Source of the DNA: a virus
Taxonomy: Duplodnaviria > Heunggongvirae > Uroviricota > Caudoviricetes
IMG/VR virus record: IMGVR_UViG_2609460059_000007
Direction: 5' to 3' (one strand)
Length of the DNA: 21,966 bases
The notes under the pieces are model-generated. The model searched no databases, was not told the DNA's origin, and was given only the letters and a program-made list of their open reading frames with translations. The translations under genes were made by a program, and so were the position numbers. Below, piece after piece: positions 1 through 21,966 of this stretch. Each line of letters begins with the position of its first letter. The first letter of the stretch is position 1.

Positions 1-1275
1 ATGGCCATTAATGTGCTTTCCCCCAAACAGATAGAAAACGCCAAGCCGAAGACCAATGATTACAAACTTACCGATGGAGGGAGTTTGTATCTACTGGTAC
101 GAAAGACTGGTGGAAAATACTGGCGTATGAATTATCGTTTTGATGGAAAACAAGTGACATTGGCATTAGGGGTCTACCCAGATGTCTCACTTGCAACAGC
201 GCGGAAACGGCGTGATGAAGCCAGGCAACTACTAGCCGATGGTCGTGATCCTCGCGAAGCAAAGAAACCCAAAAAGGAAGACCCAATTTCCCCCACGTTC
301 GAGAGTGTTGCCAGAGAGTGGCATAGTGGAACGATGGGGCATCCTGAGTGGAAAGAGATCACCCGTAAAAAAATTCTCCGAGAAATGGAAAACCACCTCT
401 TTCCTGCCATCGGTTCAAAGCCTATCGATACGCTCAAAACCCGTGACTTGATGCCGATGCTGGTTGAGATGACTGAGAAAGGAATTGGTGCCACAACGAG
501 CCGTGTAAAAACCACTATGACGAGCATCTTCCGTTATGCCGTGCAACGTGGAATTGTCGATTACAACCCTGCCCACGATCTAAAAGGTGCAATTACGGCC
601 CCCAAAGTACGACATCGCCCCGCACTACCTCTCGAACGTTTACCTGAACTGTTAGCGAAAACGAGAAGTTACACGGGAAGACCATTGACTCGCCTAGCAG
701 TTCTCTTTTCCCTGCACACTTTTGTGCGATCCAGCGAACTACGACATGCCAGATGGGAGGAGATCGACATTGAAAATGGGCTATGGACGATACCAGGACA
801 ACGTGAAGAGATCGCAGGGGTTAAATTCTCAGATCGGGGTGCAAAGATGGGGGCTGCTCATTATGTCCCGCTATCTAGTCAGGCTATCGGGGTACTGGAG
901 GATATAAGGAAAATCAGTGGTGAATATCTGCTGGTTTTTCCCGGTGACAGCAACCCATATAAACCGATGAGCGAAAACACAGTTAATAAAGCACTGCGAA
1001 CGATGGGTTACGACACTCAAACTGATGTTTGCTTGCATGGGTTCAGGGCGATGGCCTGCTCTGCACTGACCGAATCAGGACTCTGGTCACGCGATGCAGT
1101 TGAACGGCAGATGAGTCACCAAGAAAGAAACGAAGTGCGGGCAGCATATGTGCATCTTGCGCAGCACATGCAGGAACGCCGCAGAATGATGCAATGGTGG
1201 TCTAATTATCTGGAACTAAATAAGGACGAATTCCATGCTCCTTATGACTTATCAGGTATTAACATTATCAATTAA
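1..1275 (+). CDS. int: P4-type tyrosine integrase (site-specific recombinase)
   Basis: 424-aa ORF; N-terminal region (YKLTDGGSLYLLV, KYWRMNYRFDGKQ) typical of P4/CP4-57-type integrase DNA-binding domain; C-terminal part with HGFRAM and conserved His/Arg/Tyr-containing region of tyrosine recombinases. Recognised from memory, no search run. Confidence 0.9.
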   Translation: MAINVLSPKQIENAKPKTNDYKLTDGGSLYLLVRKTGGKYWRMNYRFDGKQVTLALGVYPDVSLATARKRRDEARQLLADGRDPREAKKPKKEDPISPTFESVAREWHSGTMGHPEWKEITRKKILREMENHLFPAIGSKPIDTLKTRDLMPMLVEMTEKGIGATTSRVKTTMTSIFRYAVQRGIVDYNPAHDLKGAITAPKVRHRPALPLERLPELLAKTRSYTGRPLTRLAVLFSLHTFVRSSELRHARWEEIDIENGLWTIPGQREEIAGVKFSDRGAKMGAAHYVPLSSQAIGVLEDIRKISGEYLLVFPGDSNPYKPMSENTVNKALRTMGYDTQTDVCLHGFRAMACSALTESGLWSRDAVERQMSHQERNEVRAAYVHLAQHMQERRRMMQWWSNYLELNKDEFHAPYDLSGINIIN

Positions 1276-1305
1276 ATACTCTTATAATTTAAAACAGAGG
1301 TCATA

Positions 1306-2187
1306 ATGCAGCATTCAACAGAGAATGAAACTATATTCTTAGGAAATCTATGGATTGACAAAAAAATACCACCATTAGAATATTGTTCATTTGAACGCGC
1401 TTCAAGACTATTAGAATGCGAGATTGATGATTTATTACATCTATACGAAATAGGCGCTTTTAATATCGCATTCAAGGCGGATGGACTTGCAGTTAGATTT
1501 AATGTTAATTTCCTCAATAAAAATCAGAAAATGGAAATTGACTTAATTCATCCCGTATTAACTAATCAATCACTAGAGATGGAATTTTCAACAATATGGT
1601 ATGACCTTAAAGATGATTCCTTTGAACATTTTGAAAATGGGCTTCAAATTATAGGATTTGCCTGTGGTATTTGGTACGCCGATGATATGATAAGTGACAT
1701 AAAAAATGGATTAGCTATAGATCCAGATTATGAATTCAGGCTTAAACCGGTAAAAATACGAGATAATGTTTTGATGGCAACGGCCTCATATGAAGGAAAT
1801 AAGGTCATTGAGATTCCATTTGAAGATCTTCTTATCATGCGAAGAGATTTAGAGTTAATATGGAAATCAGTAAAAACTGGAATTCCTATGCCAAGTTTAC
1901 TTACGAAAAGAATTTCATCTGAACCTAAAATCCCCAAGCGATTAAATAACACTGCTGAGCATCATGCAAAAAATAGGGAGGGGTTATTAAATGCAGCCAT
2001 ATATATATTAGCAAAATACCCAAGCGAATGTCGTGGTGAAAGAAAAGAGATAAGTCCTGAAAAGTGGACTAACGCCATAATTAAACATTTAGGAGAGCTA
2101 CCTCCAATATTTATCACTAATGAACAAGAAATCTTAAGAAAATTACGATTAGCGGTTAATCATGCGGGATTAAAACAAAAGGGGTAG
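1306..2187 (+). CDS. Hypothetical protein, AT-rich orphan cargo gene between int and alpA
   Basis: 293-aa ORF starting 31 bp after int stop with GAGG Shine-Dalgarno 7 nt upstream; codon usage visibly more AT-rich than flanking int and alpA; no motif I can assign. Confidence 0.6.
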   Translation: MQHSTENETIFLGNLWIDKKIPPLEYCSFERASRLLECEIDDLLHLYEIGAFNIAFKADGLAVRFNVNFLNKNQKMEIDLIHPVLTNQSLEMEFSTIWYDLKDDSFEHFENGLQIIGFACGIWYADDMISDIKNGLAIDPDYEFRLKPVKIRDNVLMATASYEGNKVIEIPFEDLLIMRRDLELIWKSVKTGIPMPSLLTKRISSEPKIPKRLNNTAEHHAKNREGLLNAAIYILAKYPSECRGERKEISPEKWTNAIIKHLGELPPIFITNEQEILRKLRLAVNHAGLKQKG

Positions 2188-2289
2188 ACTGAAACAATCT
2201 ACAGGTAGAGTTGATTACACTACCTTCACAGCATTTTGATATCCCCATAGTATCTGCCGTGTTCATTACATAATACGGCAGGTAATTTC

Positions 2290-2505
2290 ATGACATTAAA
2301 AACTTATCCTATCACTGGACATGCCCGCCCACGAGCTACTGCTGACTTTTTGCAAATAAGTACGGTTACTCTCTGGCGCTGGGAAAAGAACAATCCTGAA
2401 TTTCCCAAATCTATACGCATTTCAAAACGGGTATCTGTTTACGATGCACAAGAAATTAGGCAGTGGGTTAAAGCTCAATCAGCAGGATTGGAGGAAGTAG
2501 TATAA
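2290..2505 (+). CDS. alpA: AlpA-family phage transcriptional regulator (excisionase-like DNA-binding protein)
   Basis: 71-aa ORF with the AlpA-type helix-turn-helix signature (FLQISTVTLWRWEKNNPEFPKSIRISKRVSVY); typical position after int in P4-like elements. Confidence 0.85.
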   Translation: MTLKTYPITGHARPRATADFLQISTVTLWRWEKNNPEFPKSIRISKRVSVYDAQEIRQWVKAQSAGLEEVV

Positions 2506-2554
2506 TGACAATATTAACAAAGCTGGGGAGAAAAAAGCCTCCCCAACGTATTAA

Positions 2555-2749
2555 TCAATTCTTTGGTTCTAAACCTCGGCTTTGTAACTCTTTGCGTAGA
2601 ATGCGCTTGATCCAAGCCGCTAGCGATTCATCGCCATCCTGCTGTTGTGCTTGTTCCATCAGTTCACGCAGTTCAGGGTCAAGTCGGAACTGGAATGGCG
2701 GATTCCCACGTCTTTCATTTTTGTGTGTTGACACGTCAATTACACCCAT
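2555..2749 (-). CDS. Arc/MetJ-type ribbon-helix-helix DNA-binding protein, putative satellite repressor
   Basis: 64-aa ORF with beta-strand/helix/helix pattern FQFRLDPELRELMEQAQ...ESLAAWIKRILRKEL characteristic of Arc-like RHH proteins; divergently oriented from the downstream operon, with palindromic operators in the shared intergenic region. Confidence 0.6.
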   Translation of the reverse strand: MGVIDVSTHKNERRGNPPFQFRLDPELRELMEQAQQQDGDESLAAWIKRILRKELQSRGLEPKN

Positions 2750-2783
2750 TGTAATGTATTTATGTGTAATGACACATTACACA
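2728..2783. promoter_or_regulatory. Divergent promoter/operator region with perfect palindrome GTGTAATG-ACA-CATTACAC and related half-sites
   Basis: 21-bp perfect palindrome at 2763-2783; additional CATTGTAATG and TTGAC-AC-GTCAA partial palindromes at 2728-2760; TTGACA at 2728-2733 as possible -35; lies between Arc-like gene start (2749) and Icd-like gene start (2866). Confidence 0.5.
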
Positions 2784-2865
2784 CAGAAAAACAAAATAGC
2801 AACGCCCCGGAGTGTTTGCAGCAGCACCGAGGCGTCTGACCAGCACGTTATATGAGGTAACGAAG

Positions 2866-3042
2866 ATGGCTAAACAGAAGTGTACCTGGTTATTTGCGGC
2901 GATCAACCGCAGTCAACGCAATGCCCGTCCTGTGATGTTAAGGATCACCGCAGATAACGAACGATCAGCGCGGCGCAGACTTGCCCCGGACTATGTACTG
3001 AGCTTTGCCGGGCGCATTCCCTGCGGAGGTGAACATGCGTAA
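2866..3042 (+). CDS. Putative Icd-like host cell division inhibitor (P4 kil/icd positional analog)
   Basis: Internal ATG of listed ORF 2812-3042 preceded by GAGG at 2854-2857; product MAKQKCTWLFAAINRSQRNARPVMLRITADNERSARRRLAPDYVLSFAGRIPCGGEHA resembles, from memory, the Icd-like small proteins of P4-like prophages (L.ITA...ARRRLA...FAGR.P motif). Not verified. Confidence 0.45.
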   Translation: MAKQKCTWLFAAINRSQRNARPVMLRITADNERSARRRLAPDYVLSFAGRIPCGGEHA

Positions 3043-9213: not shown

Positions 9214-10062
9214 ATGTCAAATAAAGTTGATGTTTTTTTGAGCCGAGTTAGCCATGTATCACAGTTTGTATTGGTGGCATTTGCTATTTTTGGATATTTT
9301 TATACAGTAAGACCAATTTACCAAAAGGAACTTTTATCAGAAGAAATTGCAAAAAAAGAAGTTGAATTAAATAAATTAAAAACTGCAATGGAAAACTCCC
9401 AAAAATTTATAGAGAATAATAAAATCTTACGAAAAGAATTGGAGGGAAGCATTGCCAAACTTGATTTACAATACAAAGAATCAGAAGAAAAATTAAATTC
9501 AATAAATTCTGAACTAAGAAAAACTTTAAATGAACTAAATAAACAAAAGACCATTGCCAAAAGAGCGGTCAATGCAAACAACAAGAATCTTGAATCTGTT
9601 TTCTGGGAGAATTTTTCGGGGCTAGTTGGAGTAGTTTATATTTCTAAGAGCACAGATTTTGTGAACAATACACTGGGTGACGCCAAAACAGCCTATAATA
9701 CTCCTAGTAATTTATATATATCTCCTTATGATGCAATTAATGAAGCATTAAAAAATGGCAATCATAACTTTATCTCAAGTTCAGAAAATGTCCCTGAAAA
9801 TATCCGCAACAAAATTCTAGCAAAGATCCGTCGCGCTATTGAAAAAAATAAGATTTCATTAACAAAAAAACCTATCGGTTTTGATGAAAAAATTAATAGT
9901 CTGATAAAAACTATAGAGTCAACTAAGTTACGCAAAAATGAAAACGAAATAATGAAAAATAACACTGCAGAAAGAGAACTATCATCTTATATTTTCCTGA
10001 TAAATGGTCAATCAAGAATCCGCGCCATGGATTTCTTAAAAGACATTCAACATTTAGACTAA
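9214..10062 (+). CDS. Hypothetical membrane-anchored coiled-coil protein (cargo gene A of satellite hotspot)
   Basis: 282-aa ORF, strongly AT-rich; AGAGG Shine-Dalgarno; short N-terminal tail, one hydrophobic helix (VSQFVLVAFAIFGYFYTV), then a K/E-rich heptad-like region; no recognisable catalytic motif. Confidence 0.7.
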   Translation: MSNKVDVFLSRVSHVSQFVLVAFAIFGYFYTVRPIYQKELLSEEIAKKEVELNKLKTAMENSQKFIENNKILRKELEGSIAKLDLQYKESEEKLNSINSELRKTLNELNKQKTIAKRAVNANNKNLESVFWENFSGLVGVVYISKSTDFVNNTLGDAKTAYNTPSNLYISPYDAINEALKNGNHNFISSSENVPENIRNKILAKIRRAIEKNKISLTKKPIGFDEKINSLIKTIESTKLRKNENEIMKNNTAERELSSYIFLINGQSRIRAMDFLKDIQHLD

Positions 10063-10078
10063 TATTGGATATCTTATA

Positions 10079-10783
10079 ATGAATACTAATACTAAATTTG
10101 ATTTATGGTTGATTAGAGTAAGTTACATTGCCCAAGTTGGATTGTTTTTTTTGACAACCTTTACAATATTTTACACAGTAATTCCGATATACCAAAATGC
10201 AAATCTGCAGGAATCAATAGCAAAAAAAGAAATCGAATATAAACAATTACAAGACAAAGAAAAAACTCTATATTTAAAGTTAAGAAAGGAATATTCAAGA
10301 AAATATGTTGTTGATGCAATCTCCCAATGTTCTCCAACAGAAATACTTATGCGTCAACCATCTGAAGATGACAGTAAAAAATCACATGATGTAAGAATGA
10401 AGGAATTAAAAACATTTTTAAACAAAGATATAACCAGTTGCTTTGAAAAAACTTTTTATAGCAACCCTTACATTAAGGAATTAAGAGACACTGATCAACA
10501 AAATATTCTTCTTAAAATTAAAAATTTATCCCCCTCTATAACTAAACTACATGAAAAATATAAAGCAGAATTTGATGACGATAGCAAGTTATTGAATACT
10601 GGAAAAGAAAAATCGACAAGATTAAAAGAGGTGGAAGATTATTTAATAGGAATAGGAGGTTACACAGAAAACAGCAAAAAGGATTTTGAAAACTCATACA
10701 TAGAATCTGGAGCATATGACTTGGTTGTAAGGTATGGTTTTGAAGTCAACGATCTATTTTCCAAAACCATCAGAGACAATTAA
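10079..10783 (+). CDS. Hypothetical membrane-anchored protein, N-terminal paralog of cargo gene A (cargo gene B)
   Basis: 234-aa ORF 16 bp after gene A; N-terminus (IRVSYIAQVGLFFLTTFTIFYTVIPIYQNANLQESIAKKEIEYKQL) parallels gene A (SRVSHVSQFVLVAFAIFGYFYTVRPIYQKELLSEEIAKKEVELNKL) at protein and DNA level; C-terminal halves unrelated. Confidence 0.7.
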   Translation: MNTNTKFDLWLIRVSYIAQVGLFFLTTFTIFYTVIPIYQNANLQESIAKKEIEYKQLQDKEKTLYLKLRKEYSRKYVVDAISQCSPTEILMRQPSEDDSKKSHDVRMKELKTFLNKDITSCFEKTFYSNPYIKELRDTDQQNILLKIKNLSPSITKLHEKYKAEFDDDSKLLNTGKEKSTRLKEVEDYLIGIGGYTENSKKDFENSYIESGAYDLVVRYGFEVNDLFSKTIRDN

Positions 10784-10823: not shown

Positions 10824-11392
10824 TGCTTAAATTATAAAAACATTTCAGGTTTGATTTAGATAACACGCAAATAAAAAACAAACTAATGAAATATATAAAT
10901 TAATTCTTAGGTATAAAATGTTACAATTAGAATATATTTAATTTTTAACTTTAAATCATGATAAATCTAAAAGTAAGCCCCCAAAAAACCTTCAAAACAC
11001 AATACGTCGTGTCTCAACCCCATGATATTTAGGGTTAAACCAAGTTATAGCGCTGACTGGTGAGCGGTTTGAAGTCATTCTGGTATACATAAAATGAAAA
11101 AATACATTGGGAGATATACCCCTGACTTACAGAGCTGGTAACGGTTACCAAGTCGCATTGTGTAATGCGTGGGGTGTAAAATTTTTTGGGTATTTTTTAT
11201 CCAGTAGCAGGTTAGCCCGCCCCCCCTGCTCCTAACGTTCTTTCATTCCTCTTTTCATCATTTTTAGAACGATATAAACAGATGGATCTCTATGGTTTTA
11301 ATGAGTCGATTTTATCGTCTGATGGTATCCATGATGGTACCTAAGAGAGAAAATAAAAAATAATACTTAAAAAACATGAAATTATAAATACT

Positions 11393-11415
11393 TTCGATTC
11401 CTGCAGGGGACACCA
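11393..11415 (+). other. attR-like direct repeat: 23-bp 3-prime end of a tRNA (T-loop through CCA), matching tRNA-Arg(CCU)/argW from memory
   Basis: TTCGATTCCTGCAGGGGACACCA contains the T-loop consensus TTCGATT, the 3-prime T-stem strand, acceptor strand and terminal CCA, but the 5-prime two thirds of a tRNA are absent (upstream is AT-rich non-tRNA sequence). Confidence 0.7.
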
Positions 11416-11852: not shown

Positions 11853-12383
11853 TTACTTACTTTGTTCTGGTTTCTCTTCATTCTTATTGTGCACTTCCAC
11901 TTTGGGTAACTGATTAAAAACCAGATTTTCTTTTTCAACCAGAGCCATGACTTCTTTGGTGATATCAGCTGACTCGTTATGCGCAAGCACAACACCTGAA
12001 GACAATACAGCAATATTTTTAGGATTGTCTTTTCTCCATGTACCTATGGCATTATCTATCGCACGGGATAACACCATTTTTGCGCTATTTTCCTCAATAA
12101 CATATTGTCGCTCCAGTTTTTGTCTGGCATCAAGAAGCAGCGCCTCTTTATTCGCGTTATCTGCGAATGCTTTTTGCGCATCCTCATAGCCTTTTTCAAG
12201 AATACTCTTAACCTCATTCAGATGCTTTCTGACCATGTCTCCGGCGGCAGACTGATTATAAATAGCATCGATATTAACAACTGCAATTTCTTTTGACTTT
12301 TTCATATAAAAAACACCAGTAAGTACAATCAGCAACAGCAGCACTACTGCATTAACAACAGAAAATTTCATTACAGAACTCAT
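11853..12383 (-). CDS. Skp/OmpH-family periplasmic chaperone-like protein
   Basis: 176-aa ORF; hydrophobic N-terminal signal/anchor then IAVVNIDAIYNQ and C-terminal VLSSGVVLAHNESADITKEVMALV, paralleling E. coli Skp (IAIVNMGSLF...[25 protein letters not shown]) from memory. Confidence 0.65.
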   Translation of the reverse strand: MSSVMKFSVVNAVVLLLLIVLTGVFYMKKSKEIAVVNIDAIYNQSAAGDMVRKHLNEVKSILEKGYEDAQKAFADNANKEALLLDARQKLERQYVIEENSAKMVLSRAIDNAIGTWRKDNPKNIAVLSSGVVLAHNESADITKEVMALVEKENLVFNQLPKVEVHNKNEEKPEQSK

Positions 12384-12400
12384 TATGACAACCCTGAGGT

Positions 12401-12421
12401 GGCAGGAGGTCCCCTCCTGCC
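12401..12421. other. GC-rich hairpin between autotransporter and skp-like gene
   Basis: GGCAGGAGG-TCC-CCTCCTGCC perfect 9-bp stem; no T-tract, so more likely an mRNA stability/partial termination element than a full terminator. Confidence 0.4.
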
Positions 12422-12430
12422 ACTGTGTGA

Positions 12431-15400
12431 TTAGAATATATATTTAATACCCAGCATTGCCTGGGCATCACTGTACCCTTTATCGCCAGCCTGAACACCA
12501 ACATTGCCCCAGACATTCAGGTTATCTGACAATTTACCCTGAACACCCGTTTTGACTTCAGCAATATTTGTAGCTCCGTCCTGACTGAGTGCCGTATTAT
12601 CCATTTTGACACCCCAGCTCCGTGTATTATGGATCCAGTTAACTTCCACAAATGGCTCAAACTGATGCGCCTTATTATCATCAGACGCACTCTTACCTTT
12701 CAGGTAAGTTCTGACGCCCAGACGACTCTGGATATTACCGTCTCCGCTGAGCTGAACTTTCGTGCCATTCTTCTCCGTATGCTCACTGGCTCTTACATTC
12801 ATCCACGTGATCTGGGACTGCGGCTGAATATACCAGTCATAGTGACTACCCTGGCTACCGGTAAATTCGCCGGCTTTAAAGGTATAACCCGCTTCCACTG
12901 AACCGGTAAATCCACGGGATTTCCAGGACTCCGCAGCCAGTTTTTCACCATTAACGGTATTATTAAACCATCCGTACTGGATCCAGGTATCGACATAAGC
13001 CCCGTTGTCATTACCGTCATTCTGCTGCCACGTTCCGTATAAACCGGTGCTGTATCCATTGATCGCACCTTTAGATTTATATCCCGAAAGCGAGGATGTC
13101 GTGGAACTCTTCTCATTTCCATAACCGGCCATAATCCCCAGTTGCAGACGGTCCTGACCGTCAGTCCATTGCGCAATGCTGCCACCCAGTTGCACAACAT
13201 AACGGTTACTTTGCGTATTCAGCTGTGAACTGCTGTCCTTCCAGCGATTATGACCGCCGATATGACGCATCCACATACTTGTTGCTTTCTTCTCACCAGT
13301 AAACACATCGGTATAGTAAGTTTCCCCCTCACGATCGTGCATTCTGATGTTGAACAGCGTGTTGGCTGCCGCTATGTTCGCAATATAAGAGCCCGCTTCC
13401 GGACGATAGACCTTCTGTACAGGTTTATCCGGCGTGGGGTGTGGCTGTGGCTGCGGTTGTGGCTGCGGCTGCGGTTGTGGCTGCGGCTGCGGTTGTGGCT
13501 GCGGTTGTGGTTCTGGCGGCAATTCAGAACGCAGATACCAGTTACCGTCAGTACCACCCGCATTACCTTTATGCAGGAAATATTCCCACGCCCCTGCCAC
13601 CGCACGGTTCTGCAGTCTGAAGTTACCGTCAGACTGCCCACCGACATGCACAATCTCAATGCCGTCAGCGGTCTGAGCCCCCTGGCCCCGGACATTATTC
13701 ACCACCACGCCGGTATCACCGGAGGTGTTACCCGTGACAATCAGTTTGTCAGTGGTAGAAGTATCATCCCCCAGCACGGTATTGATAATTAACGTACCGC
13801 CACCGGTGTAATCGCCATTTACGGTCAGGGTATTTCCTGTCTTACCACCGGCCAGACGAATGACGCCGGTATTGGTCAGTGAGCCAACGGTAAAATTGCC
13901 CACCTCTGCCGTTTCATAACCTGAGAGAGCATTCAGTGATGCCAGTGTTCCCTGGTTATTAACCTGACCCGAAACGGTCCCCAGCCCACTCAGTGTGCCG
14001 CCATTAAGAACATGAATGTTTTTGGATCCTGACAACGTCGCGCCAGCGGCACGGGTGACTGAATCATCACCGACAATCAGAACGCCACTCTCAACCGTGG
14101 TATCACCGGTATAAGTCAGCTCATGATTAATGATCAGATTACCCGCCCCCTGTTTCACCAGAGCGCCGGAGCCAGTAATATCATTCTTCAGTAACCAGTT
14201 TCCACTGGCGGTAAGCCAGGTGACACCATCACTGTCAATCAGCCCGGTGCCCAGGTGTTTTTCATCTGAAGCCCGCAGAGCAGCATCTTTCTGCACACGG
14301 AATTCACCGCTGAAATTACTGTTATCCCCGGAAAGCGTCAGATCAGTGGTGTTCAGTATACCCACTGAACCTTCTCCGGAAAGCGATTTACTCAGGTTAC
14401 TGCTGACTCCGCTACCGTCGGCGATATCAATCGCCAGGCGATCATTAAGGCTTTCAAAGCTGATGGAGCCCTGGCTTCCCAGCCCCTGTGCGCCGTTCAT
14501 TTCAACCAGCGCCCCCTGGGTAAGGCTGGCATTACCGGTAAACCCGATATTGGTGCCATGTACCGTCAGATTGCTGCCCGTGACAGCCAGCGTTCCCTCA
14601 CCGGACAGCACGTTGTTTTCAATGATGCCACCATTATCATCCCCCGGCTGACGCTGCGTGCCGCTGACCGTTAGTACACTACCGCTATCAAGCTGAATGT
14701 GCGCTCCCGTTTCTGTCTGCAGTGCACCGACAGTCTGGCTGTATCCGTTTGTTCTGAAGACGGCATTGCTGGCGACGTTCAGATTACCTGTTGCGCCAAG
14801 TACATTATCATTTGCCATCTGTAATGTGCCGCTGCGCACCAGCGTATCCCCGGTGTAGTTATTACCGCCGTTAGACAGTGTGACAACCTGCCCCGCAGCT
14901 TCGATGGCCAGATCCCCTGCCCCCGTTAACTGTGCGCCAAGATCTGTCTGCAGTCCCTGGGCATTCGCTCTCGGTGTCAGCACCAGCGCTTTATCACCGG
15001 TTCCCTGTAAATCCAGCGACTTCAGCCCATAGCCTATGTACAGTCCGTCACCTTTAATACCGTCGGAGCTTCCCAGCAGCTTATAGTCATAATTTCCCTG
15101 AGCTACAACTTCACCGCCCTGAGTGACATCAAACGTCTGACTGTGAGAAATAGCCTGCCCGTTTTCATCCACCAGTTGCAGTTGCCCGCCAGTACCGGTG
15201 ACGGTACCCGCTGCATTCACCAGCGTGACCAGGGTCTGCGCATCATCCTGCTCCAGCAAATTCTTACGGGTATCAACAGCCGGAATATCATTAATCACTT
15301 CATCTGGCATGGTGACCTGAATTGTGCCTTTCCCCCGGATATCCAGCGTACCTGCAGCAGAGGTTTCAATACTGTTGCTGGCAATGGTATCGCCCGGCAT

Positions 15401-18400
15401 AACGGAACCAAAAATCAGCGTTCCGCCATTGAACCCAAGACCGCCAATCTGCTGAACACCGGAGCCAACCGTTGTGATATTCCCGGTTTCAGACATCAGC
15501 ATTGCATGGGTTAACCCGCTCGTATTCAGCCCTTCCAGAGCAAAGCTACTAGTACCCAGCTTCAGAGTTCCGGCAAATTGATCCCCGACGTTATGGCTGA
15601 ATTCAAAAGCAGATGTGTCGGCATCAAGACGGGCAGACAGTGTTCCTTTGCCTGTTAACAGTGGATCAAAGGTAAAGTTGCCTGCAACTGCGGGAATAAT
15701 GGCCAGTTCGCTGCCCGATTCAATATCGACGGAACCCGGACCGTTCCCCCCATCGGTCAGCACAAGAGCTTCCTTCAGAGTGACAAGTGAACTGTTCTTC
15801 AGCCCGACATGTTCGAAATTCTGTAGTTTTACAACAGAATCCAGCGTATGAATGGCGTTATCAAAAATCAGGGAATCAGAATCTCCCTGCCCGCCATCCA
15901 GCAGGTTCCAGGTTGCCCCTTCACCTTTAATGGTGAAGGTGTTCTTCCCGGTACCGGCAGTAACCTGATCAACATGAGTCTTACCATTGAGTGTTACATT
16001 ATTATTGCCATTTCCTGCAGTCACTTCTCCTGTCAGTGTGCTGCCATCATCAAATAAAAATGTATTGTTACCCTCTTTCGCACTGACGGTTCCGGTAATA
16101 CTGCCTTTATTGGTGAATGTGTTATCACCGCCGTTCAGAGCCACAACCCCCTGAATTTCAGCACCGCTGTCATTCAGTACGGTGGTATTCACGGCGTCAT
16201 CAAACGCCATTGCAGTCCCGGTGGTGGACGCAGCTTTAATCTGACCTTTATTGGTAAAGGATTGTGCTTTTGAAGCATCCACTACGGCATGACTCAGAGA
16301 AGCAGAGATGAGATTACCGCTCTGAACCACTTCACTGGCTGCATTGTTAACCACCAGAGCGGAACCGCCATCGGCCTGTATAACATTGACACTTGCACCA
16401 CTCTTCACGACAGCACCATCTTTAGTGTTGGCGAAAATACCCGTGCCGTCCGTACCCTTCAGGTTAATGACCAATCCAGCGGAGTCAGACATATCCAGGT
16501 TATTATCGGTTTCACTTCCGTCAGCTTTCTGGAACGCCAGTGCAATTCCACTGCCGTCTACATTAATAGTGCCGCTGTTGGTCTTGGCCAGGGAGGCAGA
16601 AGTACGTACACCAATGCCATCAGCCACATTAATTTCAGTCGTATTGGTTAACTGAATGCCTTCAATTTCTGCGCGGTTCTCAATCCCGTGACCGACCGCA
16701 CCTGCAGCATTAACATTGATTTTCGCACCATCAATAACCAGCCCCACAGCCCCTGTATCCAGCAGGATGCCATGCGCATTTTTCTGACCTTCGATCGTAC
16801 CCAAGCCACTCCCTGCCAGGTTCAGTGACGCGCCCGCCCCCAGCTTAATGGCAGCCTCACCATCCACAGCGACGATATCCCCTCCTGTGCTGGTAATCTG
16901 AGACTGTGCACCTTCAACAAATAATGCAACGCCATTGACCGCAATACGGCTTCCTGTATTTTCAAAGCGGCCGTTATCAACCCAGACGCCGATATTATCT
17001 GTACCGGTAGTGAAATCAATGTTGCCGTTGTTAATCAACAGTCCCTGATTACGCGTAATAAAGCCCTTGGCATTATTCAGCGGCGAAGAGATATCTGCCT
17101 CATTGGTAATAACCGAGCCAGTATTCGTTTGTGTAATACTGCCATCCAGAGCGTATTCATTTCCGTCAACTTCCGCGACAACAGCGCCATCCCCTACAAG
17201 GTTAACTGATGCCCCCTGTTTCAGCGTCGCTGTCGCACCACCAGTTACATATAATCCCTGAGCCTGAGCGCCCAGGATCTGGAAATCACTGCCAGCATCA
17301 GCCAGGACATTGCTCCCTTTCCCTGTGGCCCAGATACCACGGCTGCCTGTCCCGGAGGTTTTCATCAGCAGAGAGCCGGCCTGTTTTGCCCCATCTTCAA
17401 TACGGAAAAGTACAGAACGTTCCCCACTGGCATCCAGCAGAGTTCCCGGTGCAATATTCGTCTTAATGGTTGCACCATCTCCGATAATACGAAAAGCAAT
17501 CTGATCGGTAATACCAGAGCCGTCAGCAGCAAAGTTCGGTACTGCCGAACCATCAAGGTTAACAGTCCCTTTATTGCTGGCCTCAACGCCAATCGCCCCC
17601 TGTCCCTGCAAAGATATAGTACCCGCGGTCATATTAACCGTTGTTGTTGTACCAGATGCTTTTATACCCGTTGTACGGTTAGCATTATCTCCTCCCTTGA
17701 GAACGAGATTTCCCGAGTTATTAATCGTTGTAACATCTTGTGTGGCATTAGCAATTAGTCCCACACCACCATCCTGAACTGTAATATTTCCGCTGTTGGT
17801 ACCAACAGCCCCCTCCTCAACCCGGACGCCCACTGTATTCTTTCCAGTAAAGATGATATTACCGGTATTATTTAGAGTGGCCCCATTACGGGCGATATAC
17901 CCGGTCACTTTATCCTGGGTGGAACTTAACTGAGCCCCCGCCGTTAATAGTGTGGTCTTGTCCTTCGGATTAATGAGTTTGCCGGAAATATCATAGCCAT
18001 TGCCATCCGCAATACCGGCTATCGCACTGGCATTATCCATATTGATAATGGCATTACTTTCAATTGTGCCCTGCGCTCCCCCTTCAATTAAAGTCGCTGT
18101 AGCCCCCTCACCCGTCAGGTTGATGGTCATTCCTCCAGACGTTACTGTCGAGGCCACACCGCCATCCGATTTCCCCGTGGCAATAAGTGCATAAGAGTTC
18201 TTACCAGACGCCGTAAGTGCAGAAGAAGCATCTGCAGTTCCCTGGAATGTCGCACCACTGGCAATACGGAATAATGTTGAGTTTTCAGTGGACACATCCA
18301 TAACACCGCTTCCGGTATTATGAATGGCAGAGTCCTTTCCATAGACATAAAAGCCTATCTGATCGCTGCTGCCAAATAGCACTGCACCATTGCCTGACAG

Positions 18401-20374
18401 GGTCAGACTGCCGCCATCTTTAGCAAAAACCCCCACAGCCCCCGTACCGGCAAGACTGATTTTTCCGGATACATTAACATTGCTTCCGGCACCTTCCACC
18501 CAGGCACCATAGTTACGGAAACCACTACTGATACCCTTGCCGCCAACATTTATCGTACCGTCAGAATTCAACTGTCCTGCATTGATTACCTGTAGCCCGG
18601 TGCTGTTCAGACCATTAACATTGATAATCCCGGAGTTTTTCATCCCGGAGCTATTATTTGCCAGCATGCCAACATTCAGTGCAGGTGCATCACTGTCATG
18701 ACCGTCAATAGTGATAGTCCCTTTATTTACCACATCAACAGTCCCGGCATCCTTTGCCAGGATTCCGTAGTTCCCCTGAGCCCCCCTGCCCAAAAAAATA
18801 GTACCTTCATTAACGACTTTGTTTGCACCATTTTGTACTTCAATCGCAACAGAACCCACAGCCGAATGAGTCGCAGTTTTATCCTCCGCAATACCTACAT
18901 TGATGCTCCCGAAGGCCGAGTTAATAAAAGAGCCTCCAGCTCCAACATTTACACCTCGTGTTTTGCCATTATTATCATTAGTTGATGCATCGGCAGTAAT
19001 ATTTATTGTGCCTTTATTTGTTGCCATGCCCCCATTACTAACAACAATTGCGGTGTTAATCCCCTCTGGAGCGAAAGCATTTTTAAATGGGCGAATATTA
19101 ATAACACCATTATTAATGGCTGAAGAACCATTACTACCGGCAACCATCCCCTCTGCCTGGAGAGCATATTTATCATTATTATCCCAAACAAAAAGTGTAC
19201 CATCGTTAACAATGGTACTGTCTTGATAGGCAATCATTTCAGTACCAATGGCATCAATGACCCCTTCATTAACACCGGTCCCACCATTAGTTGCAACGAT
19301 CCCTCCTCCATTCCCATAGGCAGGAAGAACTCCAGTTAATTTACCCGTTTTACCTAATATTGCTCGTGCGTTATTGGTTGCATGGAGAACAGCAAGCAGC
19401 CCTACATTTTCTTTGTAAGGAGTTGAGTCTATACGTCCCCCAGCGGTCATATCCACATTGTAATTATGCTTGGTGACAATAAGGGCCTTATTAAATTCAG
19501 CATCATACTGCTTATAAGAAAGCGTTTTGTCCTCTAGTGACTTTATCAAATATTGATTATATTGCTTTAAATCATCAAGAGAGTTAATATGGTGTACTTT
19601 TCCCGCCCAATCAGTAATTGTTCCAGCATATTTCATTGAGTCAATGATTTTTTGAGTAACGCCGCCCCCCTGCATGGTTGCACCAGGCTGAAAATAAAAA
19701 TCATTGACCGAGTTCCATACAACAGAGGAACCTTCTCCATCAGCTACAGCAAGCTGTGTATTTTTAAAAAAATTACCGATTGCTGGTGAACCCACATCCA
19801 AAATAGCTGTACCGCCATTATTGGCTGTTACAAAACGTGTCGCATTGAAAAAATCCGCAGTGCCACTAAAACCAGGAATGGTTTCATTTCCCCCAGTCCC
19901 CGCATCGCGTTGTGAGAAAGAGTCAGTATCAAACACTTGAAGTGTTTGAGAAGCGCCAGTAACCTCATCCTTCACTGTAATGGTTTTTGTTTTTTCTCCG
20001 GTATTGACGTAAATCAATCCGGATAAATTATCTCCAGTGGTGTAGCCATTTAAAATTGCCTGTTCTACAGTCATCCAGATAAGACCTGACCCACCAGACT
20101 GGACGACATTTGGACCAGTGATGTATTCGGTTTTACCACTTACTGTTGCAGCCCCAACACCCGAGTTATTCGTACCCGGACGCCAGTCTGGTGACAATAT
20201 GACATCTGCCATTGCGTTATTGCAATTAATTGCAATAGCGCCCCCCAGAACCATTGCTGATAAAGCAATTCCTAAGCGAGTTGATTTACATTTTTTTCTA
20301 CAACTCGTCAATTCTGAAACAACATCCCATTTTTGGGTTGTATGGTTCCAAATGACTTTATATACTTTATTCAT
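12431..20374 (-). CDS. Giant type Va autotransporter adhesin (2647 aa) with extended signal peptide region, repetitive beta-helical passenger, (PQ)11 linker and C-terminal beta-barrel
   Basis: N-terminus MNKVYKVIWNHTTQKWDVVSEL is an ESPR-type extended signal; passenger is G/T/N/S-rich with recurring autotransporter beta-strand repeats (NNYTGDTLVRSGTLQ, LTYTGDTTVESGVLIVG); C-terminus ends ...LGIKYIF with aromatic terminal residue typical of autotransporter barrels. Resembles the UpaE/HyxA-type locus of ExPEC by architecture only. Confidence 0.9.
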   Translation of the reverse strand: MNKVYKVIWNHTTQKWDVVSELTSCRKKCKSTRLGIALSAMVLGGAIAINCNNAMADVILSPDWRPGTNNSGVGAATVSGKTEYITGPNVVQSGGSGLIWMTVEQAILNGYTTGDNLSGLIYVNTGEKTKTITVKDEVTGASQTLQVFDTDSFSQRDAGTGGNETIPGFSGTADFFNATRFVTANNGGTAILDVGSPAIGNFFKNTQLAVADGEGSSVVWNSVNDFYFQPGATMQGGGVTQKIIDSMKYAGTITDWAGKVHHINSLDDLKQYNQYLIKSLEDKTLSYKQYDAEFNKALIVTKHNYNVDMTAGGRIDSTPYKENVGLLAVLHATNNARAILGKTGKLTGVLPAYGNGGGIVATNGGTGVNEGVIDAIGTEMIAYQDSTIVNDGTLFVWDNNDKYALQAEGMVAGSNGSSAINNGVINIRPFKNAFAPEGINTAIVVSNGGMATNKGTINITADASTNDNNGKTRGVNVGAGGSFINSAFGSINVGIAEDKTATHSAVGSVAIEVQNGANKVVNEGTIFLGRGAQGNYGILAKDAGTVDVVNKGTITIDGHDSDAPALNVGMLANNSSGMKNSGIINVNGLNSTGLQVINAGQLNSDGTINVGGKGISSGFRNYGAWVEGAGSNVNVSGKISLAGTGAVGVFAKDGGSLTLSGNGAVLFGSSDQIGFYVYGKDSAIHNTGSGVMDVSTENSTLFRIASGATFQGTADASSALTASGKNSYALIATGKSDGGVASTVTSGGMTINLTGEGATATLIEGGAQGTIESNAIINMDNASAIAGIADGNGYDISGKLINPKDKTTLLTAGAQLSSTQDKVTGYIARNGATLNNTGNIIFTGKNTVGVRVEEGAVGTNSGNITVQDGGVGLIANATQDVTTINNSGNLVLKGGDNANRTTGIKASGTTTTVNMTAGTISLQGQGAIGVEASNKGTVNLDGSAVPNFAADGSGITDQIAFRIIGDGATIKTNIAPGTLLDASGERSVLFRIEDGAKQAGSLLMKTSGTGSRGIWATGKGSNVLADAGSDFQILGAQAQGLYVTGGATATLKQGASVNLVGDGAVVAEVDGNEYALDGSITQTNTGSVITNEADISSPLNNAKGFITRNQGLLINNGNIDFTTGTDNIGVWVDNGRFENTGSRIAVNGVALFVEGAQSQITSTGGDIVAVDGEAAIKLGAGASLNLAGSGLGTIEGQKNAHGILLDTGAVGLVIDGAKINVNAAGAVGHGIENRAEIEGIQLTNTTEINVADGIGVRTSASLAKTNSGTINVDGSGIALAFQKADGSETDNNLDMSDSAGLVINLKGTDGTGIFANTKDGAVVKSGASVNVIQADGGSALVVNNAASEVVQSGNLISASLSHAVVDASKAQSFTNKGQIKAASTTGTAMAFDDAVNTTVLNDSGAEIQGVVALNGGDNTFTNKGSITGTVSAKEGNNTFLFDDGSTLTGEVTAGNGNNNVTLNGKTHVDQVTAGTGKNTFTIKGEGATWNLLDGGQGDSDSLIFDNAIHTLDSVVKLQNFEHVGLKNSSLVTLKEALVLTDGGNGPGSVDIESGSELAIIPAVAGNFTFDPLLTGKGTLSARLDADTSAFEFSHNVGDQFAGTLKLGTSSFALEGLNTSGLTHAMLMSETGNITTVGSGVQQIGGLGFNGGTLIFGSVMPGDTIASNSIETSAAGTLDIRGKGTIQVTMPDEVINDIPAVDTRKNLLEQDDAQTLVTLVNAAGTVTGTGGQLQLVDENGQAISHSQTFDVTQGGEVVAQGNYDYKLLGSSDGIKGDGLYIGYGLKSLDLQGTGDKALVLTPRANAQGLQTDLGAQLTGAGDLAIEAAGQVVTLSNGGNNYTGDTLVRSGTLQMANDNVLGATGNLNVASNAVFRTNGYSQTVGALQTETGAHIQLDSGSVLTVSGTQRQPGDDNGGIIENNVLSGEGTLAVTGSNLTVHGTNIGFTGNASLTQGALVEMNGAQGLGSQGSISFESLNDRLAIDIADGSGVSSNLSKSLSGEGSVGILNTTDLTLSGDNSNFSGEFRVQKDAALRASDEKHLGTGLIDSDGVTWLTASGNWLLKNDITGSGALVKQGAGNLIINHELTYTGDTTVESGVLIVGDDSVTRAAGATLSGSKNIHVLNGGTLSGLGTVSGQVNNQGTLASLNALSGYETAEVGNFTVGSLTNTGVIRLAGGKTGNTLTVNGDYTGGGTLIINTVLGDDTSTTDKLIVTGNTSGDTGVVVNNVRGQGAQTADGIEIVHVGGQSDGNFRLQNRAVAGAWEYFLHKGNAGGTDGNWYLRSELPPEPQPQPQPQPQPQPQPQPQPQPQPHPTPDKPVQKVYRPEAGSYIANIAAANTLFNIRMHDREGETYYTDVFTGEKKATSMWMRHIGGHNRWKDSSSQLNTQSNRYVVQLGGSIAQWTDGQDRLQLGIMAGYGNEKSSTTSSLSGYKSKGAINGYSTGLYGTWQQNDGNDNGAYVDTWIQYGWFNNTVNGEKLAAESWKSRGFTGSVEAGYTFKAGEFTGSQGSHYDWYIQPQSQITWMNVRASEHTEKNGTKVQLSGDGNIQSRLGVRTYLKGKSASDDNKAHQFEPFVEVNWIHNTRSWGVKMDNTALSQDGATNIAEVKTGVQGKLSDNLNVWGNVGVQAGDKGYSDAQAMLGIKYIF
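13445..13510 (-). repeat. Eleven tandem hexanucleotide units (CTGCGG/TTGTGG/CTGTGG on plus strand) encoding (PQ)11 in the autotransporter linker
   Basis: Read directly: 11 consecutive 6-bp units at 13445-13510; in-frame, so copy-number change would alter linker length without frameshift. Confidence 0.9.
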
Positions 20375-20398
20375 AACACTAATACTCTTGAACGCACA

Positions 20399-21019
20399 TT
20401 ATAATTGAATATTTTCACTAATAAGGGAACACGGAATATTTATAAATTGATGTAAACGTTTTACCCCGAGTTTATCCATAGCTCTACGACGATGCGTCCA
20501 CACAGTCTTACTGGATATACCCAAGGTGTTCGAGATCCATGCAATATCTTTTCCTTCCTTGGTATATATAAAGATACTTTTCTCCCTCGGGGATAATTGT
20601 CGTTCTAAAAAAGAAACTTTATGATTCGCGCGAATATTTTTTTTGCACCTCCAGCCATTGATAAATTTATCTATATAGAAACAAAATTGCTCTGCTGTTA
20701 ATTTCCACGGTATGAAAGGTATGCCTTTATTACTAACTACACCATTATCCCCCCATGCCAGGCACGGAATATTGACAGGCTGGCTTTTTAGCCATTGGTG
20801 AATGAAATACAGTGAGCGTATACAGGTAGTAGAATCATTATCAGGGAATACAGGTAACAACAACGATTGCTCATCCCGAAAGCAAGATGTGCCAAAATCA
20901 CGAATCAGAGAAGAATAGTCGTCCACAGCGATGACTTTCACGTACGAAAAACCCCGCCAACGCATACTCTTAATTGCTTGAATTATAAAAGTATTTTTTG
21001 TAGTCGTAATCAAAACCAT
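20399..21019 (-). CDS. LuxR/GerE-family helix-turn-helix transcriptional regulator
   Basis: 206-aa ORF; C-terminal LSPREKSIFIYTKEGKDIAWISNTLGISSKTVWTHRRRAMDKLGV is a LuxR-type HTH; sits 24 bp upstream of the autotransporter start, so likely co-transcribed. Position and type resemble ipuR/hyxR (from memory). Confidence 0.8.
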   Translation of the reverse strand: MVLITTTKNTFIIQAIKSMRWRGFSYVKVIAVDDYSSLIRDFGTSCFRDEQSLLLPVFPDNDSTTCIRSLYFIHQWLKSQPVNIPCLAWGDNGVVSNKGIPFIPWKLTAEQFCFYIDKFINGWRCKKNIRANHKVSFLERQLSPREKSIFIYTKEGKDIAWISNTLGISSKTVWTHRRRAMDKLGVKRLHQFINIPCSLISENIQL

Positions 21020-21112
21020 GCAATCAATTTCCTGTTATCCCCTTTCCCAATTTCCTTTTGCTTTGCACACCGGGGGGAGACAAACCTTGAGGCACAGGTT
21101 TACAAAATGACC

Positions 21113-21387
21113 CATTTTGACAACATCAATTTAATTAACTACAAATAGCACAAAACGCAGGTAAAAAACCTGCGTATTTATTTTAATTCAGAATATAATT
21201 TTGATTGTTATTTACATTTTGGCTTTATACGCCAGAGATTAAAAAGAAGACAAACCTACCTCTTTATGTGTAGATTGACGCCGCACATTGATCTAAATCA
21301 GTAAATTTAATGTTTTTTATAGAAAAAAATGTTTTTCTATACGAGAATTTCTAAACAAAGATTGGGTTTACATTTTGGGTCAAAATG
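21113..21387. promoter_or_regulatory. Candidate invertible phase-variation switch flanked by 9-bp inverted repeats CATTTTGAC / GTCAAAATG
   Basis: CATTTTGAC at 21113-21121 and its reverse complement GTCAAAATG at 21379-21387, 257 bp apart; both embedded in local palindromes (CAAAATG-ACC-CATTTTG and CATTTTG-GGT-CAAAATG) each preceded by GGTTTAC; right repeat lies inside the last 14 codons of the recombinase gene. Confidence 0.45.
21155..21182. terminator. Hairpin with flanking T/A runs inside the putative switch (possible bidirectional terminator)
   Basis: Stem ACGCAGGT (21155-21162) / ACCTGCGT (21167-21174), 4-nt A loop, followed by ATTTATTTT on the plus strand and preceded by an A-rich run (T-rich on the minus strand). 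Confidence 0.5.
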
Positions 21388-21966
21388 TTGCTTTTTTGCG
21401 TCACCTATCCCCCACATTTTTTCAAATCTCATTGAATTAGAAGCAGTATAAATTACCGTATGCCTGATATTACGATGCCCGAGATAGTCCTGAATAAGAC
21501 GGGTATCCACACCATTATCTGCTAGTGAATAACCACATGCATGGCGTAACATATGTGGATGAACTTTAATATTTAAACCTGCATTTTTACCCGCAGCAGA
21601 AACTATGTTATAAAATCGTTGTCTCGATAATGGTTTTCCTGTTCGGGAAACAAATAACCACGGGTTATCATTGAAATGTTTAACATTTAATGAATTCCTT
21701 TCATTCAGCCAGTTTGTTATTGCAATCACCTCTTCCTTTTGAAGTGGATGGACTGTACTGAATCCATTTTTTATCCGTTGAATATATATTTTTTCTGTAG
21801 TTAGTTCTAAATCCGACAACTGCAGAGATAAGAGCTCACTAACACGCAGACCATGAAAATAAGCCAATAAAATCATGCAAACATCGCGTGAAGAGCAACT
21901 CTTTTGTTTTACAGATTGAAGTAGTAAATTAATTTCATGATGCGTTAAAAATTTTCTGTTTTGCAT
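21337..21966 (-). CDS. FimB/FimE-family tyrosine recombinase (DNA invertase)
   Basis: 209-aa ORF; FLTHHEINLLL...HGLRVSEL...HPHMLRHACGYSLADNGVDTRLIQDYLGHRNIRHTVIYT closely parallels FimB as I recall it; start codon is the last three bases of the window (reverse complement). Resembles orphan fim-like recombinases IpuA/FimX. Confidence 0.85.
   Translation of the reverse strand: MQNRKFLTHHEINLLLQSVKQKSCSSRDVCMILLAYFHGLRVSELLSLQLSDLELTTEKIYIQRIKNGFSTVHPLQKEEVIAITNWLNERNSLNVKHFNDNPWLFVSRTGKPLSRQRFYNIVSAAGKNAGLNIKVHPHMLRHACGYSLADNGVDTRLIQDYLGHRNIRHTVIYTASNSMRFEKMWGIGDAKKQHFDPKCKPNLCLEILV

Follow-up and report, generated by a model that had tools for sequence, protein, structure and literature searches.

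The interval between the integrase gene int and the regulator gene alpA of P4-like satellites houses a widespread protein family that is confined to this slot, shuffles its alleles in an immunity-like manner and is accompanied by type-specific dyads near the predicted alpA promoter. We describe the family from one of its members, gene X, a 293-aa open reading frame (ORF) in the IMG/VR virus record IMGVR_UViG_2609460059_000007. The stretch of DNA analyzed (the window, 21,966 nt) consists of an 11.6-kb P4-like satellite at a tRNA-Arg gene of Escherichia coli together with flanking DNA, and its features are collected in Table 1. The best explanation of the sequence data appears to be that X belongs to an integration and regulation module, int followed by X and then alpA, of Enterobacterales satellites that are P4-like or resemble phage-inducible chromosomal islands (PICIs). 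We tentatively propose, partly by analogy with known satellites, that X would act in this module as a life-cycle switch or specificity component and not as exchangeable cargo.

Gene X is under purifying selection and has many uncharacterized relatives

A first-pass annotation, made from the letters of the window alone, had described X as an AT-rich, uncharacterized orphan with its own Shine-Dalgarno sequence, wedged 31 bp after int in a variable cargo slot of a P4-like element. Its view of the gene itself holds, except that the gap to int is 30 bp. The ORF runs from ATG to TAG behind a GAGG motif, and its composition is indeed unlike that of its neighbors, with a sliding-window GC content of 0.305–0.347 over the ORF, ∼0.50 in int and 0.55–0.60 from position 2800 on (per gene, 0.34 for X against 0.48 for int). 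The ATG at 1306 is supported by an N-terminal motif, N[LVI]W..., that is conserved in the X alleles of three other satellites with integrases 76–81% identical to that of the window. Within X allele lineages, the ratio of nonsynonymous to synonymous substitution rates (dN/dS) is 0.07–0.18 for the whole protein, 0.03–0.05 for the C-terminal domain (dS 0.22–1.37) and 0.08–0.29 for the center. Conservation therefore acts at the protein level, beyond mere DNA identity, and X is a real gene under purifying selection. The identical protein is recorded on 955 contigs and as the RefSeq hypothetical protein WP_001164861.1, and the window allele is present in 63–68 of 5,426 complete E. coli genomes.

X is occasionally found inactivated elsewhere (hits H40, H5, H25, H68 and H69; locus L025). 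It is split by the insertion sequence IS1 in strain CE0021a, IS1 lies inside the matched region in E41, two enterotoxigenic E. coli strains keep just the first 525 nt, and one IMG/VR copy is frameshifted.

That X matches no known family proved correct for curated collections. The whole protein had zero matches in Pfam, NCBIfam and PADLOC, and its best PHROGs hit (E = 0.11) was not significant. A Pfam scan of 129 family members found no domain in any of them, and the N- and C-terminal fragments of X returned nothing meaningful from curated libraries, the N-terminal one having no Pfam or NCBIfam match at E ≤ 10. Among these models, Phage_AlpA, HTH_17 and the MerR-type ones matched neither whole X nor its N-terminal fragment. 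Searches of PDB chains by sequence, single profile and deep profile were equally negative. A literature search returned no description of the family and no report of an int-alpA defense hotspot.

In uncurated sequence space, X is not an orphan. A word-indexed search gave 14 relatives, the independent ones at E values from 1e-185 to 1e-23, and 1.84 billion cluster representatives, searched exhaustively with an HMMER profile, yielded 566 clusters (50% identity) that fall in the family at E ≤ 1e-3; of these, 176 reach E ≤ 1e-10 and 19 reach E ≤ 1e-30, and almost all are 260–380 aa long. Window X has the full-length profile match, the N-terminal signature and the C-terminal ER.A.NRE...P.EC...W motif that define the family, and reaches 257 bits (E = 5.6e-78) with the A2 profile, of whose alignment it is itself a member. 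All named hosts are Enterobacterales (Escherichia, Salmonella, Klebsiella, Yersinia, Serratia, Pantoea, Pectobacterium, Brenneria and Pluralibacter), and members are annotated as hypothetical in every source; the gene is uncharacterized, as had been said. A profile search of genome contigs recovered three X loci. tblastn of X against 50,697 phage records gave no match; in a plasmid collection it gave 12, some in records of ∼20 kb, one of which is annotated with an integrase, and these ∼20-kb records could be excised satellites.

The family is found in the int-alpA slot only

We recovered the genomic context of family members spanning similarities from E = 1e-185 to 1e-12, at 15 genome and metagenome loci. 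X lies on the same strand as int at all 15, directly after a P4-type int wherever the contig reaches that far (13/13), with a gap of 3–96 bp, and is followed 85–156 bp downstream by a small same-strand gene of the AlpA/HTH_17 type. Beyond alpA the gene content differs (Phage_ASH, AntA, Bro-N or pRha; primases of the D5_N/DUF5906 or DUF927 type), as do the integration sites (yicC, asd, dfp and tRNA-Arg). When IMG/VR was sampled by integrase similarity to the window, a family member was present at all 14 loci that have an integrase at least 74% identical and enough downstream sequence, and at 0 of 65 loci with integrases 39–55% identical. The position is thus shared by the window, the 15 genome and metagenome loci and the 14 IMG/VR loci, and X was seen in no other context, either in the surveyed loci or in the phage records.

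The slot itself is variable, as the first-pass annotation had claimed. At the same tRNA-Arg site, another satellite carries a 25%-identical allele in place of window X. Among the 65 loci with distant integrases, 19 have int followed by alpA within 3.5 kb: five intervals are empty (175–300 bp), one of 581 bp holds just a 62-aa same-strand ORF, and the remaining 13 hold same-strand ORFs of 228–414 aa, with an interval GC of 0.33–0.42, that do not match the X profile. Calling the slot a cargo slot is doubtful all the same, since X is confined to it. The first-pass annotation had named as evidence against cargo a gene conserved in this position with a core function; conservation of the position holds for a large subset of satellites, and no core function is assigned to the gene.

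Some occupants outside the family begin with a similar motif, e.g., VDLNEAASRLS...LDLLELALDGELVLSV in L099. Comparison of X with other occupants through this N-terminal motif (hhalign) gave E = 0.021 for a single sequence and 0.0066 for profile against profile, at a probability of 2–6%, which is only suggestive of a superfamily that might link X to them. In the satellite of strain M217, integrated at tRNA-Leu, the occupant is an unrelated protein of 212 aa; the idea that this is a frameshifted family member was rejected, as no frame fits the X profile. None of the 14 occupant types (X and 13 others) matched a defense model in PADLOC-DB v2.0.0, and a single weak ZorE match among them (E = 0.039, 11 bits) is noise.

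X alleles are shuffled independently of integrase and AlpA

We compared the identity of X domains with that of integrase (Int) and AlpA across 16 loci. At one and the same tRNA-Arg site, satellites whose Int proteins share 73–95% identity and whose AlpA proteins share up to 88% carry X of four or more types, which are 38–65% identical in the N-terminal domain and only 11–25% in the center and C terminus. One such satellite, that of 4FM/UTME-8, has the att site of the window and an AlpA 88% identical to the window's, and the 4FM allele is of another C-terminal type. Loci L021 and L034 have Int proteins that are 95% identical, and X centers and C termini that are 13% and 11% identical. Conversely, the C-terminal type of the window recurs at 55–64% identity beside Int proteins of 22–26% and AlpA proteins of 23–31% identity. 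The Spearman correlation between X-domain and Int identity is low (rho 0.11–0.28 across three domains). Between the window and L030, dS is 0.17 for X and 1.19 for int, which points to recent transfer of an X allele between int backgrounds. X alleles have a GC content of 31–40% in all hosts, below that of int (33–54%) at every locus. X alleles are therefore shuffled independently of Int and AlpA, in a pattern that resembles phage immunity regions or the stl gene of Staphylococcus aureus pathogenicity islands (SaPIs) more closely than an integrase-specific cofactor.

X has conserved ends and a hypervariable center

An AlphaFold2 model of X, built with a 129-sequence alignment, has a mean predicted local distance difference test score (pLDDT) of 85.8, with 182 residues at or above 90. 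Three parts are seen in the protein: an N-terminal domain that carries the family signature (..EYCS.ERAA.LL.CE..DL.H.A.IG.), a center whose sequence is barely alignable among alleles, and a conserved helical C terminus. In subtype 1, to which the window belongs, the C-terminal motif reads AEHHAxNRE...YPxECRGERKEISPEKW...PP..ITNE..ILRxLRxAVN, and nearly every third residue is invariant in the alignment (AEHHAxNRE..L..AIYIL..YP.ECRGE.KEISPEKW...PP..I.N...L..LR.A.N). The family has a median isoelectric point of 5.5, its net charge being distributed unevenly over the N-terminal domain (median −2; −4 in window X), the center (−10) and the C terminus (+2). Pfam, the family scan and structure comparison revealed no recognizable enzymatic or effector domain, and structure comparison told little more than the fold class of one of the parts.

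Dyads beside the predicted alpA promoter follow the C-terminal type of X

Two tandem dyads stretch from the stop codon of X to the predicted −35 element of alpA (Table 1). The pattern of the second dyad has four exact matches, against 0.54 expected by chance. Its consensus is GGTACAGT-N5-6-ACTGTACC, or GTAsAGT-N5-6-ACTsTAC, followed by CTTAT, and it is clear in 9 of the 11 subtype-1 loci, including loci with saturated synonymous sites and AlpA just 24–30% identical. It is absent from all eight loci with other C-terminal types. The dyads track the C-terminal type of X and not the type of AlpA: L021, whose AlpA is 88% identical to that of the window, lacks them, and L002, L011 and L014 keep them with AlpA proteins 24–30% identical to the window's. 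Other C-terminal types have conserved dyads of their own at the same place, such as GAGTT-N7-AACTC in L033 and L034, where dS is saturated. We suggest that the dyads might be type-specific operators, a reading favored by the conserved half-site sequences and their tandem arrangement.

Upstream of X, a sigma-70 promoter-like site matches the consensus better than any other between 1000 and 3000, and could drive X independently of int. Further downstream, the leader of alpA is predicted to fold into a hairpin that sequesters the alpA Shine-Dalgarno sequence, and the predicted −10 element of alpA overlaps its 5′ arm. Read-through transcripts from int and X would therefore be translationally silent for AlpA, and transcripts from the alpA promoter itself would be translated. 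An inverted repeat occupies the equivalent place in L002, L006, L009, L010, L011, L012, L016 and L021 with different sequences, including a compensatory CATAAC/GTTATG pair in L010, and it follows the type of AlpA and not that of X (CTGCCGT...ACGGCAG with window-type AlpA, CCCGTAAC...GTTACGGG with the other type). Alternatively, this repeat may be an AlpA autoregulatory site.

A 26-nt stretch over the alpA start (CAGGTAATTTCATGACATTAAAAACT, window 2279–2304) has an 88% identical copy upstream of int, at 18902–18927 of L001, ∼75 nt before the int ATG and just beyond the window, with a weaker third copy another 69 nt upstream. This repeat may be a regulatory element common to the int and alpA promoters.

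The host satellite and its boundaries

The P4-like nature of the element, already proposed by the first-pass annotation, follows from its gene content and attachment (att) repeat. Within ∼10–12 kb bounded by att sites at a tRNA gene, it carries int, alpA, an icd-like gene, a DUF927 primase, two psu-like genes and delta. The tRNA-Arg 3′ end, TTCGATTCCTGCAGGGGACAC, recurs at 11393–11413 and thus delimits an 11.6-kb element; the repeat is 21 nt long on direct reading, and 16 nt are exact at a spacing of 11,597 bp in L001. The first 4.2 kb of the window are 100% identical to E. coli chromosomes. In the RefSeq annotation of the identical region in strain CH4811, the satellite begins at tRNA-Arg, beside yfdC, and runs through int, WP_001164861.1 (gene X), a helix-turn-helix (HTH) regulator (alpA), ylcI (minus strand), an icd-like gene, DUF5375, a TOPRIM/DUF927 primase, two psu-like genes and Ogr/Delta, with two to three AT-rich unknown genes thereafter. 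The order int-alpA-primase-psu-delta differs from that of canonical P4 (PMC8628076).

Table 1. Coordinates of gene X, its domains and the neighboring features in the window
Feature	Position	Strand	Evidence or remark
P4-type tyrosine integrase, 424 aa	1..1275	+	Pfam Arm-DNA-bind_3, Phage_int_M, Phage_integrase; adjoins tRNA-Arg in CH4811
Sigma-70 promoter-like site, TTAACA-18-TATAAT	1259..1288	+	11/12 consensus matches, best in 1000–3000; consensus match only
Shine-Dalgarno GAGG, five nt ahead of the X ATG	1297..1300	+	Read from sequence
Gene X, 293-aa member of an unnamed integrase-contiguous protein family	1306..2187	+	ATG to TAG ORF; profile, structure and dN/dS evidence
N-terminal family-signature domain of X, aa 20–56; beta-alpha-alpha, MerR/Xis/AlpA-like, net acidic	1363..1473	+	
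Hypervariable acidic beta-rich central domain of X, aa 57–214	1474..1947	+	Allele comparison, charge
Conserved helical C-terminal domain of X, aa 215–288, subtype 1	1948..2169	+	Invariant columns in alignment A1
Dyad 1, GGTAGACT-N5-AATCTACA; X TAG stop inside first half-site	2183..2203	.	Half-site consensus GTA(C/G)A(G/C)T
Dyad 2, GGTAGAGT-N5-ACACTACC; operator-like or weak terminator hairpin	2204..2224	.	Exact pattern match; abuts predicted alpA −35
Weak alpA promoter-like site, TTCACA-17-TAGTAT	2225..2253	+	9/12 matches; alone, within shuffle expectation
13-bp-stem hairpin in alpA leader; 3′ arm covers alpA Shine-Dalgarno	2251..2284	+	RNA fold of 2185–2300: −28.3 kcal/mol, z = −4.0
alpA, 71 aa, AlpA-family regulator/excisionase	2290..2505	+	Pfam Phage_AlpA, E = 1.6e-07
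attR core, repeat of tRNA-Arg 3′ end; right end of the ∼11.6-kb satellite	11393..11413	.	att repeat

Both ends of the satellite are flanked by GATGGTA direct repeats that resemble integrase arm sites (att core and repeats together: window 11319–11343 and 11393–11413; L001 18794–18814 and 18931–18955). OmpH, a 2647-aa UpaE autotransporter and ipuA (11853–21966) lie outside the satellite. The interval that separates alpA from the replication module, which is the place of the immunity region in P4, is occupied by a YlcI/YnfO-family gene (2555–2749, minus strand) and a gene for an Icd-like cell-division inhibitor (2866–3042); an Rfam scan of the whole window at the gathering threshold found no family, including no CI/C4-type RNA. 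A sharp recombination boundary lies between these two genes at ∼2826. From there onward the icd-primase module is 98.6% identical, as part of a satellite, in ∼300 complete E. coli genomes; in M217, the one of them examined, it is joined to a front end whose int, slot gene, alpA and ylcI differ from those of the window, at tRNA-Leu.

The canonical P4 defense hotspot, after delta and before attR, holds two AT-rich ORFs of 282 and 234 aa (9214–10062 and 10079–10783; 27–31% GC), the first of which is split into two short coding sequences in the CH4811 RefSeq record, where coordinates are offset by 2 nt relative to the window. Pfam and PADLOC scans of these ORFs gave no match, and both are candidates for an unrecognized defense system. 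Two 15-nt exact matches between gene X and the ORF at 9214–10062 were dismissed as chance in AT-rich DNA, because the encoded proteins are unrelated.

Discussion

Conserved ends, a variable center, immunity-like exchange, type-linked dyads and the precedent of the iolg gene described below are what one would expect of a specificity-determining switch. In the mechanism that we propose, X would be made from its own promoter in the quiescent satellite, and its conserved end domains would dock at the int/alpA machinery. Binding of the tandem dyads, from the stop codon of X to the alpA promoter, would most plausibly fall to the C-terminal domain, which is slightly basic and allele-typed. The N-terminal domain, conserved, acidic and MerR/Xis-like, would contact a conserved protein partner, namely AlpA, Int or RNA polymerase. 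The hypervariable center would recognize a partner that varies, in the most likely case a protein of the helper phage or a rival satellite, and X would thereby set the timing at which alpA, and hence excision, is switched on. We infer the DNA binding of X, its control of alpA and excision and the nature of its variable partner.

The closest known parallel is found in the PICMIs (phage-inducible chromosomal minimalist islands) of Vibrio, where iolg/icg, the gene that separates int from alpA, is split over 13 unrelated-looking families of no known function among 35 subfamilies and is absent from three subfamilies, while int, alpA and primase are conserved (PMC10803314). The iolg gene of PICMI115 is reported to be necessary for helper-induced excision and transfer (PMC10803314; Barcia-Cruz et al. 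2024), with the limit that an int/iolg construct was used for complementation, so that a direct role of iolg was not fully isolated (PMC10803314). By position and description, X can be likened to these genes: both lie on the same strand between int and alpA and are very diverse, and with its 30-bp gap X has the contiguous (icg) configuration. PICMI iolg genes, on the other hand, mostly overlap int by 1–13 nt, whereas X stands 30 bp away with a promoter-like site of its own, and their hosts are Vibrionaceae and not Enterobacterales.

A second parallel is the master repressor Stl/Rpr of Gram-positive PICIs (SaPIs), which is encoded next to int, is highly divergent between islands and modular, and couples induction to a specific helper protein recognized by its variable part (PMC6092414). 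X shows allele diversity of the same kind, which does not follow the integrase, and has operator-like dyads next to the predicted promoter of the master activator of its island. Stl, however, is transcribed divergently from the genes that it represses and binds DNA through a standard HTH, whereas X is co-directional with int and alpA (all on the plus strand) and its winged-helix-like domain is acidic; the two have no sequence similarity. An ambitious and, in our estimate, unlikely form of the switch proposal makes X the helper sensor of Gram-negative satellites and the functional counterpart of Stl. Sitting on the alpA-promoter dyads through its C terminus, X would hold alpA, excision and replication off or poised until its center binds a particular helper-phage protein and X is released or activated, and in that case it would be the diversity of alleles that determines the helper range of satellites and their cross-immunity. 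YfjH of CP4-57 in E. coli K-12 (318 aa, uncharacterized) likewise fills an intA-alpA interval, as a positional analog only; it was rejected as a homolog of X, being encoded on the opposite strand and having an hhalign probability of 0.6%.

Several observations weigh against X as a switch or specificity component. The slot may be empty, so X is not universal: the well-studied EcCICFT073 works without it, alpA being its ORF2 (PMC6092414), and according to the literature EcCIMP1 also works without it, with a small unrelated gene in the slot. A few E. coli genomes carry X in a truncated form or disrupted by IS1. Foldseek comparison of X with PDB and BFVD gave nothing significant, and neither this nor Pfam searches with fragments revealed a recognized DNA-binding fold in the C-terminal domain. 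The N-terminal winged-helix-like domain is acidic and has a near-invariant Asp in the would-be recognition helix, which makes classical DNA binding through it unlikely, and the charge pattern of the protein as a whole is unusual among DNA-binding proteins. As for the dyads, the second one is degenerate in 2 of the 11 subtype-1 loci. The dyads fold into hairpins, with U-rich sequence behind them in several loci, and might be a weak terminator; as they adjoin the X C terminus, their co-occurrence with its type might also reflect physical linkage alone. As a separate matter, EcCIMP1_002 was considered as a homolog of X and rejected, the literature giving its size as ∼10% of UvrB.

That X is instead a stand-alone anti-phage, helper-interference or anti-mobile-element protein, arms-race cargo that happens to be housed beside int, strikes us as less likely but is a serious rival, and much about the gene would suit it. 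Every allele is AT-rich and below int in GC at its locus, as given above; the family is hyper-diverse, shuffled among backbones, present, absent or replaced in sister satellites, occasionally inactivated by IS1 or frameshift and possibly served by its own predicted promoter; and satellites are known reservoirs of defense genes (PMC13586616). The first-pass annotation had allowed for defense genes in this position, besides anti-defense genes and regulators of excision; defense is an idea that we keep as an alternative even with no known defense family among the 14 occupant types. Defense genes typically move among hotspots, which the X family has never been seen to do, and X has no recognizable effector or enzymatic domain. 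Surveys of P4-like satellites, moreover, place the defense hotspots at int-psu and primase-att and not at int-alpA (PMC8628076, PMC13586616). Strict synteny across divergent integrases, the lack of any other context and the absence of a recognizable defense gene from the slot together argue against ordinary cargo. Still further from our expectation, indeed very improbable, is an acidic protein or DNA mimic that acts on the host or a competitor, for example as an anti-restriction or anti-defense protein, and aids establishment after transfer. The acidity of X would suit such a role, but no search found similarity to known anti-defense proteins, genes of this kind are usually leading or early-expressed and not confined to one slot, and the strict coupling to alpA and the co-occurring dyads would be left unexplained.

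It is also improbable that X is a classical recombination directionality factor (RDF) or an architectural partner of its cognate integrase and att site. Its place directly after int, at the short gaps given above, the possible resemblance of its fold to Xis/AlpA and the reported need for iolg in PICMI excision (PMC10803314) would fit such a role. Yet X does not co-vary with Int: integrases 73–95% identical at the same att site go with alleles 11–25% identical. Excisionases of the AlpA/Vis/Xis/TorI group (Phage_AlpA, HTH_17, MerR-like winged helix) are small, basic, single winged-helix proteins, whereas X, with 293 aa, two further domains and a net acidic winged-helix-like domain, is about four times the size of known RDFs and has no Pfam match to Phage_AlpA or HTH_17. 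A genuine alpA, encoding an AlpA-type excisionase, already lies directly downstream, and the GATGGTA arm-like repeats are at the element ends, away from X. Decoupling from Int, size and charge thus speak against an RDF.

The way in which helper phages turn on alpA, which encodes the master activator and excisionase of both P4-like satellites and Gram-negative PICIs, is described as unclear and is an acknowledged open question (PMC6092414; PMC11773190; PMC10803314), which our results narrow to a defined gene, X, and a defined 42-bp DNA site. They also caution that AT-rich unknown genes of satellites are not automatically defense cargo; should X nevertheless turn out to be a defense protein, this would make it a new one-gene system, unusual in its fixed location. 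Control of helper range or satellite immunity by X, if real, would explain why close satellites differ in the phages that mobilize them, and X alleles could be used as a typing marker.

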